The notes below the pieces were generated by a model that saw only the letters and a program-made list of their open reading frames with translations, searched no databases and was not told the DNA's origin. Below, one piece after another: positions 41,763 through 52,394 of a stretch of 64,000 nt of DNA (position 1 is its first letter; each line of letters begins with the position of its first letter). Source of the stretch: Promethearchaeota archaeon (GTDB taxonomy: Archaea; Asgardarchaeota; Lokiarchaeia; Sigyniarchaeales; SOKP01); the NCBI GenBank assembly GCA_019058365.1, contig JAHPZE010000016.1, forward strand, positions 1-64,000, read 5' to 3'. A program made the translations under genes and the position numbers.

Positions 41763-43187
41763 TTAGATAATTTTCCAGCGAGGACCATTTGGTGTATCTT
41801 CAAGTTGTATGCCTGCTTCTCTCAAATTATCTCTTATCTCATCACTAATTGCATAATTTTTTTCTTTTCTTGCTTTTTCACGAATACCTATAATTACATC
41901 CATTAGTTCATTTAACTTTATATCTACACTTTTTTCTTTCTTATAGAAATCAAGACCGAAAATATTGAGAAGTTCAAGAAGGGTATCACGTGCTGTGACA
42001 AGGATTTCTTTTTTATTCTCCAAGGAACTATTGATTTTTTTAATAAATTCATAGATAGCTGCAAGAGCTTTCGGATTGTTAAAATCATCATCCATTGACT
42101 CCTCAAAATCACTCCTTACAGTTTTAATAGCTTCTTCAAGAGTTTCCTCATCTCCTCCAGATGAATGCTCAATTGCGGTTAAACAATTTCTTATTTTTTC
42201 AATATTATTCTTCGCATTTTCAATAACTTTAGGATTCCAATCTACTGCAGACCGATAATGACCAGATACAAGTCCCATTCGCACAACGAGTCCTCCATAT
42301 TCATCAATTAATTCTCGAGCTGTGACATAATTTCCAAGACTTTTACTCATTTTTTTTCCATTTAATGTGATAAATTCAGCATGCATCCAATAGTTAACAA
42401 ATTTTTTTCCGGTTGCGGCTTCAGATTGAGCGATTTCATTAGGGTGATGAGTAGGGATATGATCAATTCCTCCACAGTGAATGTCTAGCGTTTCACCTAA
42501 GAATTTCATGCCCATAACTGAACATTCAAGGTGCCATCCAGGATAACCCTCACCCCATGGTGAATTCCATCTCATGCTATGGACTTGATCCCCTTTTTGT
42601 GCATTTAACCACAAAGCGAAATCAAAATAGTTCTTTTTTAAAGGATCCTGATCCACTCGTGCTTGTGCTTTCTCTTCATCAAGCTTTAATCTCGCAAGTT
42701 TTCCATAATCTTTAAATTTCGCAGTATTATAATACACATTTCCTTGTACTTCATAAGCATAACCTTTTTCTAACAAAATTTGAATTATTTCAATCATTTC
42801 AGGAATTATAGATGTTGCTCTAGGGGAAATATTTGGTCTTTGGATGTTTAAATCATCGATTACTTGCCAATATTCTTGAATTTGATTATCTACTAGCTCC
42901 CAAGGATTGATTTTTTGTTCTTTTGCTCTTTTCTCTATTTTATCTTCACCTTGATCTGCATCATCTGTCAAATGGCCAACATCAGTGAAATTTTGAACAT
43001 GAAAAACATCATAACCCTTGTATCGTAGGTATCTAATAACTACATCCCAAGAACTATAAGTTCTTGCATTGCCGATGTGTACATCATCATATACGGTCTG
43101 CCCACAAGTATAAATTCTAACTCGGCCTTCTTCTATAGGTTTAAAAATTTCCTTTTGCCGAGTCATAGTGTTATAGATTTTAAGCAT
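41763..43187 (-). CDS. cysS: Cysteine--tRNA ligase
   Basis: Y.CGQTVYD..HIGN, DFALW, GYPGWHLECS, HH.NE.AQ, KMSKSLGN. Confidence 0.97.
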   Translation of the reverse strand: MLKIYNTMTRQKEIFKPIEEGRVRIYTCGQTVYDDVHIGNARTYSSWDVVIRYLRYKGYDVFHVQNFTDVGHLTDDADQGEDKIEKRAKEQKINPWELVDNQIQEYWQVIDDLNIQRPNISPRATSIIPEMIEIIQILLEKGYAYEVQGNVYYNTAKFKDYGKLARLKLDEEKAQARVDQDPLKKNYFDFALWLNAQKGDQVHSMRWNSPWGEGYPGWHLECSVMGMKFLGETLDIHCGGIDHIPTHHPNEIAQSEAATGKKFVNYWMHAEFITLNGKKMSKSLGNYVTARELIDEYGGLVVRMGLVSGHYRSAVDWNPKVIENAKNNIEKIRNCLTAIEHSSGGDEETLEEAIKTVRSDFEESMDDDFNNPKALAAIYEFIKKINSSLENKKEILVTARDTLLELLNIFGLDFYKKEKSVDIKLNELMDVIIGIREKARKEKNYAISDEIRDNLREAGIQLEDTPNGPRWKII

Positions 43188-43264: not shown

Positions 43265-46129
43265 TCAATTTTTTACCTCTATAAATACCTCAACAACTTT
43301 ATTATCAATTTTTAATTTCTTTATATCTTCTTTACCTTCTAAATTTTGAATGATAATATCGGCTTGTATCATCTTTTTAATTTTTTCTTCATGTTTTTCA
43401 AGAGCTTCTGAAATATCTTTATCAATTATTTTTAAATACAAAATAATTCGATTTTTCGTTGAGAGATTCAATTGTTTTCTATAATTATTTAAATGCCTAA
43501 TCAAATTTCTAGCAATTCCTTCCAACCTTAACGTTGTTGTAATTTTGGTATCTAATTCTATTAAAATTTCAGACTCTTCTCCCTTTTCAATATTTACTTT
43601 TCTCACATTTATAGCTTCTGCTATAATATCTAAATATTTCTTTTCAAGATTTACTCCTTTTATTGTAACCTTATTTAGAACCTGTCTAACTGGAATTTTA
43701 GAATTATCTCTTAATTCTAAGGATCTTTTTACTATTTCTCTTGTTAGTTCCATATTTTTTAGAACTTCGCTTTTAATCAATGTCTCATCAAATTCTGGCC
43801 AAAACTCTAAATGGACGGATTCAAAATTTATACTCCCTTGTTCTATCAATTTCTTGTATATTATCTCTGAAATAAAAGGAGTTAGAGGAGCTAAGAGTTT
43901 TGACAAATTATACAGCGTATACGACAGTGTATTCATCGCTGATAGTTTTTCATTTATAATCTCACTTTTAAATCGATTTCTACTGTGTTTGATGTACCAC
44001 GTAGACAGATCCTCAATGAAATTGAAAAATAATCTACTTGTTTCTGCTGTGTCATAATCATTCATGAGTTGTGTAATATCCCGAATAAGTTTATTCAATA
44101 AACTGACAATCCATTGATCTAAAATATTATCTGAATGCGTTATATCCATAGTAATGTCATCAATATCAATCAATGAATAGAACTTTAGAATATTAATTAA
44201 CAATAAATTAAATCGTCGGTAAACCTGTTTTACAATTTCTTCTTTAAAATTTAAATCTTGTGCCCTCATCAATTGGGATGACAAAAGATATACTCTTAAA
44301 GCATCAGCTCCATACTTTTCAATCATTACCTCTGGATTAGGGAAATTTCTTTTGGATTTTGCCATCTTCGTTCCATCTTCAGCAAGTATATTGCCATTTA
44401 CAACTACATTTTTAAACGGAATATCATCAAATAATAAGACAGATATTACATGCATATAGTAAAACCACGCTCTAACCTGTCCAATATACTCAGAAACAAA
44501 ATCACTTGGATAGTTATGCTTAAACCATTCCGAATTTTCAAATGGATAATGTTTTGCAGCATATGGCATTGATCCTGATTCCAGCCAGCAATCAAAAACC
44601 TCTGGTACACGGGTCATTACTTTACTGCAACTGGGACATTTAAGATGGATCATATCAACTATATGTCTATGAAGATCTAAATCATCGGGGACCTCTTCAA
44701 TTGCATTTTCCTGCAATTCATTAATGGATCCAATGACTTTAATTTGTTTACATTCTTCACATTCCCAAATGGGCATAGCTGTAGCCCAAAATCTATTTCG
44801 TGAAATACACCAATCAGGAGCGGTATTCACTATACTTTCATATCTTCTAGAAATCTCTTTAGGATACCATTTGATCTTTTCATTAGTTTTTAGAAGCTTC
44901 TGTTTTATTTGCTGAATGTCTATAAACCAGGCATCAAGAGCATTATAAATTAATGGAGTATCACATCTATAACAGAATGGATAAGAATGTGAGTAGTCTT
45001 CTGAACTAAATAATAGATTTCGTTGTTGCAAATCCACTAATACTTGTTTATCTACATCTTTAAACCATAATCCAATCCAATTTCTTGGACCTTTGGCTAG
45101 ATTGCCATGCTCATCAATGTGTTGAATTATAGGTAAATCATATTTCTTAATCATTTCATAATCAAATTCTCCATAAATTGCTATGTGTATAATTCCTGTT
45201 CCCTCATTAGATAATACCTCATCACCACCATCAATAACAAAATGCCCTTTTTTGTTGGTATCAAGAGAAATTTGATATAAAGGCTTATATTCTATATTAA
45301 GTAGGTCTTTTCCTTTAAATTCATTAACAATTTCATAGTCTTTTTTGATTATATCCAGTTGGGTTTTTATCAATATTAAATATTCATCATCCAGCTTTAT
45401 CTTAACATAATCTTGCTCACTATTTACAGCTAAAGCTACATTTCCAATTAACGTCCAAGGCGTAGTAGTCCAAGCGAGAAAAAATGTCATTGATTCTTCA
45501 TTCAATTTGAATTTTACTGTTATTGATTGTTCACTAATGTCTTTATAGCTATTATCCATCGAAATCTCGGAATTCGAAAGTGGTGTTTCACAACGAGGAC
45601 AATAAAATAAAATTTTCTTACCTCTATACACTAAACCATCATTATATATTTTTTTAAAAATGTACCATATGGTTTCCATATAAGTATTATCCATGGTTTT
45701 ATAAGAATTATTGAACTCTATCCACTTACCCATTCGTTCAACGGTTTTTTTCCATTCATTTGTATACCAAAGCACTTTTGATCGACAGAATTCATTGAAA
45801 TTATCTATACCCATTTCGTATATTTCATTTTTTTGCTTCAAATTAAGGGCTTCTTCACATATACTCTCTATTGGCAAACCATGACAATCCCAGCCCCATC
45901 TTCTCTCACAATGATACCCTTTCATTGTCCAATATCTTGGAAATACATCCTTAGTTACAAAACTTAAAATATGACCATAATGTGGCAATCCCGTTGCAAA
46001 AGGAGGTCCATCATAAAATATATATGGATTTTCCTTTGGTGTTTGTTCGACACTTTTTTCAAAAATCTTATTATCTTTCCAAAATTGTATAAGTTCCTGT
46101 TCTTTTTCAATATATGAAATATTTAACAC
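43265..46129 (-). CDS. ileS: Isoleucine--tRNA ligase (IleRS2-like)
   Basis: YDGPPFATGLPHYGH, GWDCHGLP, AWTTTPWTL, DWCISRNR, KMAKS; start uncertain (GTG 46129 or ATT 46120). Confidence 0.95.
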   Translation of the reverse strand: MLNISYIEKEQELIQFWKDNKIFEKSVEQTPKENPYIFYDGPPFATGLPHYGHILSFVTKDVFPRYWTMKGYHCERRWGWDCHGLPIESICEEALNLKQKNEIYEMGIDNFNEFCRSKVLWYTNEWKKTVERMGKWIEFNNSYKTMDNTYMETIWYIFKKIYNDGLVYRGKKILFYCPRCETPLSNSEISMDNSYKDISEQSITVKFKLNEESMTFFLAWTTTPWTLIGNVALAVNSEQDYVKIKLDDEYLILIKTQLDIIKKDYEIVNEFKGKDLLNIEYKPLYQISLDTNKKGHFVIDGGDEVLSNEGTGIIHIAIYGEFDYEMIKKYDLPIIQHIDEHGNLAKGPRNWIGLWFKDVDKQVLVDLQQRNLLFSSEDYSHSYPFCYRCDTPLIYNALDAWFIDIQQIKQKLLKTNEKIKWYPKEISRRYESIVNTAPDWCISRNRFWATAMPIWECEECKQIKVIGSINELQENAIEEVPDDLDLHRHIVDMIHLKCPSCSKVMTRVPEVFDCWLESGSMPYAAKHYPFENSEWFKHNYPSDFVSEYIGQVRAWFYYMHVISVLLFDDIPFKNVVVNGNILAEDGTKMAKSKRNFPNPEVMIEKYGADALRVYLLSSQLMRAQDLNFKEEIVKQVYRRFNLLLINILKFYSLIDIDDITMDITHSDNILDQWIVSLLNKLIRDITQLMNDYDTAETSRLFFNFIEDLSTWYIKHSRNRFKSEIINEKLSAMNTLSYTLYNLSKLLAPLTPFISEIIYKKLIEQGSINFESVHLEFWPEFDETLIKSEVLKNMELTREIVKRSLELRDNSKIPVRQVLNKVTIKGVNLEKKYLDIIAEAINVRKVNIEKGEESEILIELDTKITTTLRLEGIARNLIRHLNNYRKQLNLSTKNRIILYLKIIDKDISEALEKHEEKIKKMIQADIIIQNLEGKEDIKKLKIDNKVVEVFIEVKN

Positions 46130-46293
46130 CTAACTTGAGATTTTTTTATTATCATTAAATATTCTAACTTAAATACATTCTAAATAAAAATTGTTTAACA
46201 TTAGGGAGATTATATCGCAATTCTAAGTTATTTTATTCATGAAGTAGGATGTGGAGTAAAGGTTACGAGAATTCACTTCACAAATAAATGAAG

Positions 46294-46368
46294 TTAGATA
46301 ATAATAATCGCGGATATGATCTTTATCATATTTTGTGCAAAACCTAAGAATTTAGTATTTTTATTCAT
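46294..46368 (-). CDS. Putative ileS leader peptide (24 aa, Ile-rich)
   Basis: MNKNTKFLGFAQNMIKIISAIIII*: 7 Ile among the last 10 sense codons, 165 nt upstream of ileS on the same strand, embedded in inverted repeats. Confidence 0.7.
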   Translation of the reverse strand: MNKNTKFLGFAQNMIKIISAIIII

Positions 46369-46449
46369 AACATCCACATCCACGTTATATTTTAAATATA
46401 GTAAAATGATCTAAAAAATATTTCGGTATTTTCTAGATTTATATCATCA

Positions 46450-49566: not shown

Positions 49567-50118
49567 ATGTCTGGGGATCATCAAAAATATATTGTATTCA
49601 AAATAGCTCTTCTTGGGGATACTGCCGTCGGAAAAACCTCTCTGGTTGATATGTATACCCAACATCGATTTAAAGAGGATTACAAACCGACTTTAGGAGT
49701 TTCAATATGTGTGAAAGAATTAACAAGCAAAAGAATAAATACTCAAATTCGATTGATCATTTGGGATATTGCTGGTCAAGAAAAATATGTTTTGAGTAGA
49801 AAGATGTTTTTTCAAGGAGTTATGGGAGCCCTTCTTGTGTATGATATAACCAGGTATTCTACATTTGAAAATATTGAATCTAAATGGTTAATAGATTTAA
49901 ATGAATATGGTGACCAAGATTTAGCTTATATTTTAATCGGAAATAAGATTGATTTAGAAGATTCAAAAGTGGTTGCATTTAAAGATGGTGAAAAGCTAGG
50001 TCAGAAAATTAATGCAAGTGCTTTTATTGAAACAAGTGCTAAATATGGTGAAAATGTAGAAAAAGCTTTTGAAAAATTAGTTTTTCAAATATTAAAGAAT
50101 GAAGGAATTGAAACTTAA
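49567..50118 (+). CDS. Rab-like small GTPase
   Basis: GDTAVGKT, PTLG, WDIAGQE, NKID, ETSAK. Confidence 0.95.
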   Translation: MSGDHQKYIVFKIALLGDTAVGKTSLVDMYTQHRFKEDYKPTLGVSICVKELTSKRINTQIRLIIWDIAGQEKYVLSRKMFFQGVMGALLVYDITRYSTFENIESKWLIDLNEYGDQDLAYILIGNKIDLEDSKVVAFKDGEKLGQKINASAFIETSAKYGENVEKAFEKLVFQILKNEGIET

Positions 50119-50134
50119 AAAAAGGTAAATAAAT

Positions 50135-50566
50135 ATGAAGAGTATCGAAACTAAAACTAAACGAGTTATTATCGGAAAGATTGAACCTGATGAAGATTTA
50201 ATAGATGCTATAATCGTCATAGTAAATAAACACAGAATTACCTCTGGATTGATTAATTGTATTGGAGCTTTAAAAAAATTCACAATTGGATATTTTGATA
50301 TTGAATCTAGAAGATATTTAACTAAGACAATTGATGAGTATGTAGAATTGGTATCTTGTATGGGAAATATATTCTTCAAGAATGGCGAACCAATAGTTCA
50401 TTTACATTTCTCTATAGGAACAAGGGATTATAATATTATTGGAGGTCATTTACTCCAACCAAGTATAGTCTCAGTAACAGGCGAAGTTTGTATCTTAGAA
50501 ATTGAAAAAAAGTTAGAAAGATCAAATGATATGAAATTTAATTTATCATTATTAGATTTGGAATGA
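50135..50566 (+). CDS. PPC domain (DUF296) protein
   Basis: IGAL, ELVS..GN, HLH, GGHL, TGE. Confidence 0.9.
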   Translation: MKSIETKTKRVIIGKIEPDEDLIDAIIVIVNKHRITSGLINCIGALKKFTIGYFDIESRRYLTKTIDEYVELVSCMGNIFFKNGEPIVHLHFSIGTRDYNIIGGHLLQPSIVSVTGEVCILEIEKKLERSNDMKFNLSLLDLE

Positions 50567-50572
50567 TTTAAA

Positions 50573-51127
50573 ATGACAGAAAGAGATAAGAGGAAATGGG
50601 CAATTAAATTAACTGTATTAGGAGATCAAGCAGTAGGGAAAACCTCTTTAATTAAAAAATATGTTACTGGAGCTTTTGAAATGGATTATCATCCAACATT
50701 AGGAGTAGATATAACACTTAAAGATCTCGTTCTCGATGAGATTAATTCTGAGGTTCGCCTAATCTTGTGGGATATTGCTGGTCAAAATAAATATGAATTG
50801 ACTAGAAAAATGTTTTTTCAAGGATGTGTTGGAGCTTTATTAATCTATGATGTGACAAGACCCTCAACTTTTAAAAATGTAACTGCGAAATGGTTAAATG
50901 ACTTTAAACAATATGGACGCTCAAACGCAATATTTATTCTGATTGGGAATAAAGTAGATATGGAGGATTCAATAAAAGTACATTCTGAAGACGGAATAAA
51001 GTTATCCAAAGAGCTAAAGGCGATAGATTTTATTGAAACAAGTGCAAAATATGGTAAAAATGTTGAAAAAGCATTTGAAAAATTAGTTATGCATGTATTA
51101 AACAATCTTAGTGGAAAATCAAATTAA
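50573..51127 (+). CDS. Rab-like small GTPase
   Basis: GDQAVGKT, WDIAGQN, NKVD, ETSAK. Confidence 0.95.
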   Translation: MTERDKRKWAIKLTVLGDQAVGKTSLIKKYVTGAFEMDYHPTLGVDITLKDLVLDEINSEVRLILWDIAGQNKYELTRKMFFQGCVGALLIYDVTRPSTFKNVTAKWLNDFKQYGRSNAIFILIGNKVDMEDSIKVHSEDGIKLSKELKAIDFIETSAKYGKNVEKAFEKLVMHVLNNLSGKSN

Positions 51128-51144
51128 AAAAAATTAAAACCGAA

Positions 51145-51711
51145 ATGATTGGAGATTATAAAGGAATTGTAAAAAATAAGGTTGTCATAGCACTACTCCA
51201 GGCATATCATGATATCCTTGATTATGATGGAATGAAATCAATTCTAAGAGAAGCAGAAATGATTTATCTAAAGGATATAGGAAACGAAAATCCTAATGAT
51301 ATAATAGATTATTTTTCTTTTAAAAAAATCATTTCTGCTCAAAATTGTTTATTATATGATTCTTCAAAACTCCTCTATGAAATTGGTAAAAAAATGGCAT
51401 TTTATTTATTCCCATTTGGTAAAAGTCTTGAAGAGATAATCAATGAAATTAATACTTCTATTATTACAGATTGGAAAGTTGAAATTTTAGATAATAGTGA
51501 AAATGAAATAACCGTTCAAGTTGATAGGTGCATCTTCTGTTCTGAGATTGGAGTTCCTTGTGATTTATTTATTGGATTTTTAGTTCATTCATTACAGAAA
51601 TCATTACCCTCAGAACAAATGGTTACATGCAAAAGAGAAAATGAAGATATAAACGATCCAACTCACAATAGTTTTATTGTTAAATTAAAAATTGGGAAAA
51701 ATATTAAATAA
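51145..51711 (+). CDS. V4R-like domain protein
   Basis: LLYEIGK, CIFC.....PC....G pattern. Confidence 0.6.
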   Translation: MIGDYKGIVKNKVVIALLQAYHDILDYDGMKSILREAEMIYLKDIGNENPNDIIDYFSFKKIISAQNCLLYDSSKLLYEIGKKMAFYLFPFGKSLEEIINEINTSIITDWKVEILDNSENEITVQVDRCIFCSEIGVPCDLFIGFLVHSLQKSLPSEQMVTCKRENEDINDPTHNSFIVKLKIGKNIK

Positions 51712-51839
51712 TTTTTTGAAGAAGATAATATTAGTATAATTTATTGAAGAAATCCTTATATTTGTAATTAAAAAAATATCATATATCAAATTTGAAATAA
51801 AGTATTAAATATACTTACAACAAAATAATAAATTGCACA

Positions 51840-52394
51840 ATGACAAGAGAAGAAACTAGTGAATTACGTGAATTCGTTTTTAAAATAACTATTTTAGGAG
51901 ATGCAGCAGTGGGCAAAACTTCATTGATTAGCCAATTTGTAGAAGGATCATTTCAAGAAGATTATAAACCCACATTAGGAGCTAATATTGTACGAAAAGA
52001 TGTAAATCTTGATAATGCAAGAGTCAGATTAATCATGTGGGATTTAGCTGGTCAAGAAAAATATCAAGTTGTTCGTAGTATGTACTTTCAAGGATGTCAG
52101 GGCGCTCTACTCGTTTATGACGTAACGCGCTATAATACATTAGATAATATTAATACGAAATGGTTAAGAGACTTTAAAAAACATGTAAAAAAGAAAGGAG
52201 CATTCATCTTAATAGGAAATAAAAGTGATTTAAAAGATCAGAGAGTAATACCTACAGAACGAGGACAAGAATTAGCTACTAAAATTAAAGCTAGCCATTT
52301 TATTGAAACAAGTGCAAAACTCGGAGAAAATATTGAAGAGGCTTTTTCTCTCCTAGTACATCAAATTTTAAGTGATCATGGGGTTAATCTTTAA
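51840..52394 (+). CDS. Rab-like small GTPase
   Basis: GDAAVGKT, WDLAGQE, NKSD, ETSAK. Confidence 0.95.
   Translation: MTREETSELREFVFKITILGDAAVGKTSLISQFVEGSFQEDYKPTLGANIVRKDVNLDNARVRLIMWDLAGQEKYQVVRSMYFQGCQGALLVYDVTRYNTLDNINTKWLRDFKKHVKKKGAFILIGNKSDLKDQRVIPTERGQELATKIKASHFIETSAKLGENIEEAFSLLVHQILSDHGVNL

Follow-up and report, generated by a model that had tools for sequence, protein, structure and literature searches.

A conserved leader with an isoleucine-codon run upstream of a second isoleucyl-tRNA synthetase gene in Lokiarchaeia resembles bacterial leader-peptide attenuators

The window, the 64,000-nucleotide stretch of Lokiarchaeia DNA analyzed here, carries on its minus strand a second isoleucyl-tRNA synthetase (IleRS) gene, ileS2, preceded by a leader of about 260 nt in total. 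By sequence comparison this is a real and conserved regulatory leader that resembles the leader-peptide attenuators of bacteria, here in an archaeon, with termination proposed as its output. The reading that we put forward, and to which we give a shade better than even chances, is that of a ribosome-mediated attenuator that gauges how fully tRNA-Ile(GAU) is charged and turns on a spare IleRS through termination or cleavage in the linker. Its sensing step is likely; termination or cleavage as the output, given sensing, is a moderately probable best guess and not a result. The parts of the leader and the genes behind it are:

46411–46427, minus strand: candidate promoter, BRE-like CCGAAA plus TATA-like TTTTTTAG (46418-46411), predicted from motif conservation
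46373–46383, minus strand: region 1, GTGGATGTGGA, SD-like site of the uORF and the strand shared by helices 1:2 and 1:4 (core invariance, 16S pairing)
46294–46368, minus strand: leader uORF, ATG 46368 to TAA 46294, 24 codons including 8 Ile codons
46310–46319, minus strand: region 2, TCATATCCGC, abutting the Ile run on its 5' side; partner of region 1 (helix 1:2 covariation)
46297–46308, minus strand: Ile run ATT ATT ATT ATC, the proposed sensor
46274–46288, minus strand: region 3 (core TGAAGTG, 46280-46274), 5' strand of hairpin 3:5 (95.8% paired)
46247–46255, minus strand: region 4, TCCACATCC, pairing with region 1 and lying within the 30-nt loop of hairpin 3:5, which is rich in pyrimidines (helix 1:4 covariation)
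46232–46246, minus strand: region 5, TACTTCATGAATAAA, 3' strand of hairpin 3:5, with helix 1:4 competing for its first bases (pairing conservation)
46182–46190, minus strand: U-rich tract some 50 nt 3' of hairpin 3:5, a weak candidate aCPSF1 termination signal
46118–46131, minus strand: ileS2 initiation region, SD-like AGGTG and then ATT at 46120, the annotated GTG lying perhaps within the SD (ortholog alignment)
43265–46129, minus strand: ileS2, type-2-like second isoleucyl-tRNA synthetase, 954 aa (family model, paralog comparison, tree)
41763–43187, minus strand: cysS (TIGR00435), 77 nt 3' of ileS2

The ileS2 product scores 824 bits against the ileS family model TIGR00392, above its cut-off, and has the HXGH signature motif as HYGH; against IleRS structures it scores 693 bits with PDB 8c8u and 308 bits with PDB 8c9e, which we take to be a type-2 and a type-1 enzyme, respectively. 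The resident ileS paralog, encoding 1048 aa on contig C50 of the same genome, is 33% identical to ileS2. The earlier note had named ileS as the regulated gene; it does encode an IleRS and the run is cognate, but it is the second, accessory copy and not the resident one. Close homologs of ileS2 are mostly labeled Lokiarchaeota or Promethearchaeota. In a quick IQ-TREE search (SH-aLRT support only, N-terminal half, midpoint root) the ileS2 sequences form a clade (99) whose sister is a set of three archaeal-looking sequences (100) within a Patescibacteria-rich group; the resident Loki IleRS clade lies far away, and ileS2 is nested among DPANN/CPR-type enzymes. We read this as horizontal acquisition of ileS2. 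One ileS of the sister clade has a tRNA-Ile with a UAU anticodon directly on its 5' side (L072:2802-2878) and is without a uORF leader. Genus g15 encodes a different IleRS of 1057 aa (G209:C163:2638-3213), 50% identical to ileS2 and without a match to the leader model, which is possibly a separate acquisition.

Conservation was scored over 45 distinct orthologous leaders, which come from relatives and are not independent of one another, and linkage by searching a leader covariance model and the ileS2 protein against 135 genomes of one Lokiarchaeia family. Leader and ileS2 are both present, adjoining and in single copy each, in the same 39 of 39 genomes, which belong to two genera; the covariance model found no leader in the other 96 of the 135, one of which encodes a more distant IleRS. 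One more genome has a leader fragment ended by a contig edge. The leader is kept 5' of ileS2 even where the gene upstream differs, and is conserved down to 66% IleRS identity. From the uORF stop to the annotated ileS2 GTG there are 164 nt in the window (165 as a coordinate difference, as the linker was previously given), and the linker ranges from 76 to 243 nt in the orthologs. No Ile-run leader was found before the resident ileS, nor before the ileS homologs of the sister clade and those nearest outside. Among 400 Asgard genomes searched for the exact pattern, Ile-run matches came from genera g1 and g22 only; the remaining matches have no likeness to the leader.

An Ile run by itself means little, since 18 of 2526 intergenic uORFs in this AT-rich genome carry IIII or longer, which bears out the caution of the earlier note that ATT repeats arise easily in such DNA. 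The same note had named lack of conservation of the run as grounds for abandoning its proposal; three consecutive ATT codons stand in all 45 leaders. Synonymous change is absent from these codons (135/135), and ATA makes up 34% of Ile codons genome-wide; the Ile positions 5' of the run vary synonymously among ATT, ATA and ATC, and the final sense codon is Ile in 27 of 45 leaders. The previously reported uORF coordinates, and its end in ATT ATT ATT ATC TAA, are correct. Its frame is open in 45/45 leaders (20–25 codons) and both alternative frames are stopped in all of them; length changes are in frame, and the stop is TAA, TGA or TAG. Codons 2–13 have accumulated 195 parsimony substitutions, none of them nonsense against about 15 expected (P about 1e-7), spread evenly over the three codon positions (69/61/65); translation therefore matters and the N-terminal peptide sequence does not. 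Selection on the uORF for translation is thus supported by the comparison. The core of region 1, GATGTGGA, is invariant in 45/45 leaders, and region 1 pairs with the 3' end of the genome's own 16S rRNA at −7.4 kcal/mol. A programmed frameshift (prfB-like) to a TGA in region 3 was considered and rejected: the stop-to-TGA spacing of 14–21 nt is not frame-locked, and the other frames are stopped.

The folding energy of the leader has a z-score of −4.3 against 300 dinucleotide shuffles, 0/300 of which are as low. Exact complementarity over 9 bp between GGATGTGGA (46381-46373) and the segment at 46255-46247 had been noticed before, and it corresponds to a conserved helix, 1:4, in which 97.2% of cells are paired over 11 pairs, including a 2-bp extension into region 5; two pairs have double changes, from two lineages. 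The fold proposed at that time was incomplete, missing helix 1:2, which is paired in 96.4% of cells and has three pairs changed on both sides as well as a G-U/G-C exchange among the 45 leaders. A second ACUUCAU, suggested as a competitor, does exist (ACTTCAT at 46245) and belongs to hairpin 3:5 (96% paired), the rest of which had gone unseen; one pair of this hairpin passes through C-G, U-G, U-A and G-C in about ten changes and is never broken in 45 leaders. Helix 1:2 and the 3:5 core are each 96% paired; the double-change cells number 38, where shuffles give 7.6, and slid controls are paired in only 28–64% of cells compared with 96–97% for the helices in register. The RNAalifold consensus of the leaders consists of 1:2 plus 3:5. 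Two local hairpins of the earlier fold are present but not conserved: ACUUCAU/GUGAAGU at the stop (ACTTCAT at 46294, GTGAAGT at 46281; 71% of cells paired, with one position at 9/45) and AUAUGAU/AUCAUAU (46331/46320; 80% of cells paired). Both appear in this genome's 1:4 fold.

Within one lineage the same G of region 1 has changed together with matching changes in region 2 and in region 4; one strand, region 1, therefore has two partners, which we regard as direct evidence. The comparison supports a switch in which 1:2 and 1:4 would exclude each other and 1:4 would take the closing bases of 3:5. Since the G-U pairs fit the sense strand only, the helices should act in the sense RNA, which speaks against a DNA operator.

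The two states lie at −31.5 (1:2 plus 3:5) and −34.8 kcal/mol (1:4) in this genome, and within 4 kcal/mol of each other in 30 of 45 leaders. Mean equilibrium probabilities of 1:2, 1:4 and 3:5 are 0.35, 0.48 and 0.32 without a mask, and 0, 0.82 and 0.1 when a ribosome footprint is masked on the Ile codons. The Haloferax ribosome protects 27 nt, the 5' edge of its footprint lying 12 nt from the P site (PMC7261190) and hence about 15 nt from the A site, a geometry by which a ribosome at the first ATT codons would cover region 2 and one at the stop codon would be leaving it. With the ribosome masked on the stop codon, 1:4 still leads in the equilibrium model (mean 0.68); because it leads there, and often on naked RNA (0.48), the OFF state would depend on kinetics, that is, on ribosome release and fast closure of 1:2.

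In the proposed attenuator, transcription would begin near 46388 and a ribosome would load at region 1. With Ile-tRNA plentiful the ribosome would run off, 1:2 would close—blocking re-initiation as well—and 3:5 would form, so that the untranslated 164-nt linker would be left to aCPSF1/FttA, with cutting and termination at U-tracts. With Ile-tRNA scarce, whether from starvation or because the resident IleRS is inhibited, the ribosome would wait at the ATT codons with its 5' footprint over region 2; region 1 would then pair with region 4, 3:5 would open, and transcription would continue into ileS2.

Factor-dependent termination or cleavage by aCPSF1 is the favored output: no sequestration of the ileS2 RBS was seen, and the genome encodes aCPSF1 (TIGR03675 over cut-off, contig C40). 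An intrinsic-terminator scan of the leader found no GC hairpin directly followed by a U-tract, in line with the earlier remark that no classical bacterial terminator is evident. A run of T5 or longer is present in 39/45 linkers, mostly 40–55 nt after region 5 (background 57%), and two U4 tracts within 30 nt in 27/45 (background 38–49%); this signal is weak, and this genome's own tract is modest. aCPSF1 uses U4 tracts, and the Loki enzyme reads U4-tract terminators in Methanococcus and complements M. maripaludis in a terminator reporter (PMC8716108). The same sensor and switch could instead control initiation of ileS2 translation at a weak non-AUG start, or mRNA stability, a somewhat unlikely reading that draws on the missing intrinsic terminator, the weak U-tract enrichment, the frequent absence of AUG from ileS2 and the precedent of mycobacterial polycysteine leaders, which act at the level of translation (10.1101/834739). 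Sequestration of the ileS2 SD was nevertheless rejected: no pairing between leader and RBS is conserved, the best duplexes differing in place between loci, and RBS accessibility in the equilibrium models is the same in all states (0.42–0.43). The variable linker length argues against a translational output as well.

The ileS2 codon aligned with the ATG of orthologs is ATG at 17/45 loci, ATT at 20 (this genome and 19 others), ATA at 3 and GTT at 2; a canonical start codon is absent at five of the 45, and several loci have an in-frame stop after the annotated GTG. Many orthologs probably use a non-AUG start, and there are near even odds that ileS2 of the window starts at AUU (46120), with AGGTG as its SD.

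A second leader of this kind precedes leuS in the same genome:

contig C17, about 23120-22887, minus strand: leuS leader uORF with the Leu run TTA TTA TTA, before the gene for a 966-aa LeuRS (30 loci, L238 and orthologs L239-L267)

A Leu run closes it in 30/30 loci read, and 65 genomes matched; a helix of the 1:2 type abuts the run, and a conserved large-loop hairpin lies 3' of the stop. The second LeuRS gene (contig C35) and valS of this genome are without such a leader. Cognate-codon uORFs before other synthetase genes had been suggested as a check: leuS provides one, and by eye no cognate run was seen before 15 further genes of the genome, namely ilvD and synthetase genes other than those for ArgRS, GluRS, AlaRS and LysRS. 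The 12-mer TTATTATTATCT is common to both leaders, where it is read in frame as Ile codons at ileS2 and as Leu codons at leuS, and this cognate framing of one repeat at two genes supports codon sensing. On comparative grounds, the suggestion that a stalled ribosome senses Ile-tRNA is well supported by the selected open frame, the invariant run, the perfect linkage to ileS2 and the leuS parallel. The recurrence of the 12-mer and the absence of synonymous change in ATT, despite the abundance of ATA, also allow a role at the nucleotide level, and helix 1:2 can reach into part of the run; the uORF might then be translated and the RNA switch real, with the trigger being a (UUA)n pause or protein site, or arrest of the hydrophobic nascent peptide by another ligand. 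This seems improbable given that the repeat is framed as the cognate amino acid at both genes, that the upstream Ile codons vary synonymously and that the Leu runs accept TTG and CTA. Bacterial leader peptides, moreover, usually keep fixed sensor codons, as in leuL.

Transcription of the leader is predicted to start at about 46390-46386, 5' of region 1, with promoter spacing taken from the genome-wide TATA peak, which is weak, at −33 to −29. A TATA-like motif at the candidate promoter position is present in 42/45 leaders, compared with 32/45 for a nearer TATA-like site (about 46398-46391) that would give a leaderless start at the uORF AUG; that start was rejected for this reason and because the covarying region 1 would stay untranscribed. 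A sigma-70 promoter scan returned nothing relevant at the leader. TATA-like T/A tracts within the AT-rich linker could serve as a separate ileS2 promoter, leaving the leader as an independent small RNA or small-protein gene; this is more improbable still, with the leader in single copy per genome and always directly 5' of ileS2 even behind a changed upstream gene, missing together with ileS2 in genome G014, and unconstrained in its N-terminal peptide. A chance ATT repeat with chance complementarity in AT-rich DNA, or a protein-bound DNA inverted repeat, can be practically discounted: Ile runs are common in random uORFs of the genome, but conservation to 66% IleRS identity, frame selection and G-U pairs that fit the sense RNA only stand against both.

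Control of an ileS-cysS unit had been proposed, and its cysS part is doubtful: cysS is absent directly after ileS2 in genus g22 and at L071, and in G014, where leader and ileS2 are both missing, the upstream gene is followed by cysS about 80 nt behind, so that cysS need not depend on the leader. Two cysS types occur in the genus (L268-L271), 86–90% and 41–42% identical to that of the window, which suggests that cysS has been replaced too.

The trpL/ilvL/leuL class is among the classical leader-peptide attenuators. As in E. coli pheM-pheST, a short ORF with a cognate codon run near its end stands before the cognate synthetase, and as in the trpL/pheM class there are two exclusive folds, one of them favored when a stalled ribosome masks a segment, here by computation only. 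Unlike that class, the ileS2 leader has an archaeal host, no GC hairpin with a U-tract terminator, a proposed output, and an OFF hairpin with a large pyrimidine-rich loop; the stall would here release the SD region of the uORF itself for pairing 130 nt away. Cognate-run leader ORFs also precede the cognate synthetases in the predicted leuS and trpS attenuators of Streptomyces (PMC1262725). Mycobacterial polycysteine sORFs share the cognate run, the absence of an intrinsic terminator and an RNA duplex blocked by a stalled ribosome (10.1101/834739); their duplex sequesters a downstream RBS, whereas none that does so was found here, and the ileS2 uORF is leadered with an SD. The T-box leaders of bacterial ileS have the same purpose, ileS expression set by tRNA-Ile charging (PMC1262725), which the ileS2 leader would achieve by translation. 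A T-box riboswitch was rejected, with no credible Rfam match and no specifier or T-box motif. TnaC senses free Trp through nascent-chain arrest, and no RNA switch is needed. The ileS2 leader, unlike tnaC, has a codon run and covarying helices; it resembles E. coli tnaC/Rho attenuation (cited in PMC1262725) in having a leader ORF followed by an untranslated segment, rich in pyrimidines and accessible to a factor-dependent terminator, and FttA has been likened to Rho in its mechanism (PMC13681488).

Searches of the open-access full-text literature turned up no archaeal case of leader-peptide attenuation. Work on Methanothermobacter TrpY reportedly contains only speculation on tRNA sensing. According to a 2025 review, functional evidence for archaeal transcription-translation coupling is scarce (PMC13681488), and the ileS2 leader would make coupling-dependent regulation directly testable. 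It suggests that a spare IleRS is retained as a reserve enzyme, induced when less tRNA-Ile is charged, and is relevant to control by uORFs in the nearest relatives of eukaryotes. Tentatively, and with more doubt than confidence, we suggest that Lokiarchaeia evolved their own ribosome-mediated attenuation, in which a cognate run switches a long-range fold that gates termination by aCPSF1 (a CPSF73 homolog), and which serves leuS and was adapted to a horizontally acquired IleRS, possibly with the same repeat re-read in another frame.

Just 5' of the leader in the window lies a gene for a 667-aa product that weakly matches the TraB family (48453-46450, minus strand), overlapped by an AAA+ ATPase gene (49387-48431, minus strand); farther on, at 49567-52394 on the plus strand, are three small GTPase-like genes with two other ORFs between them.
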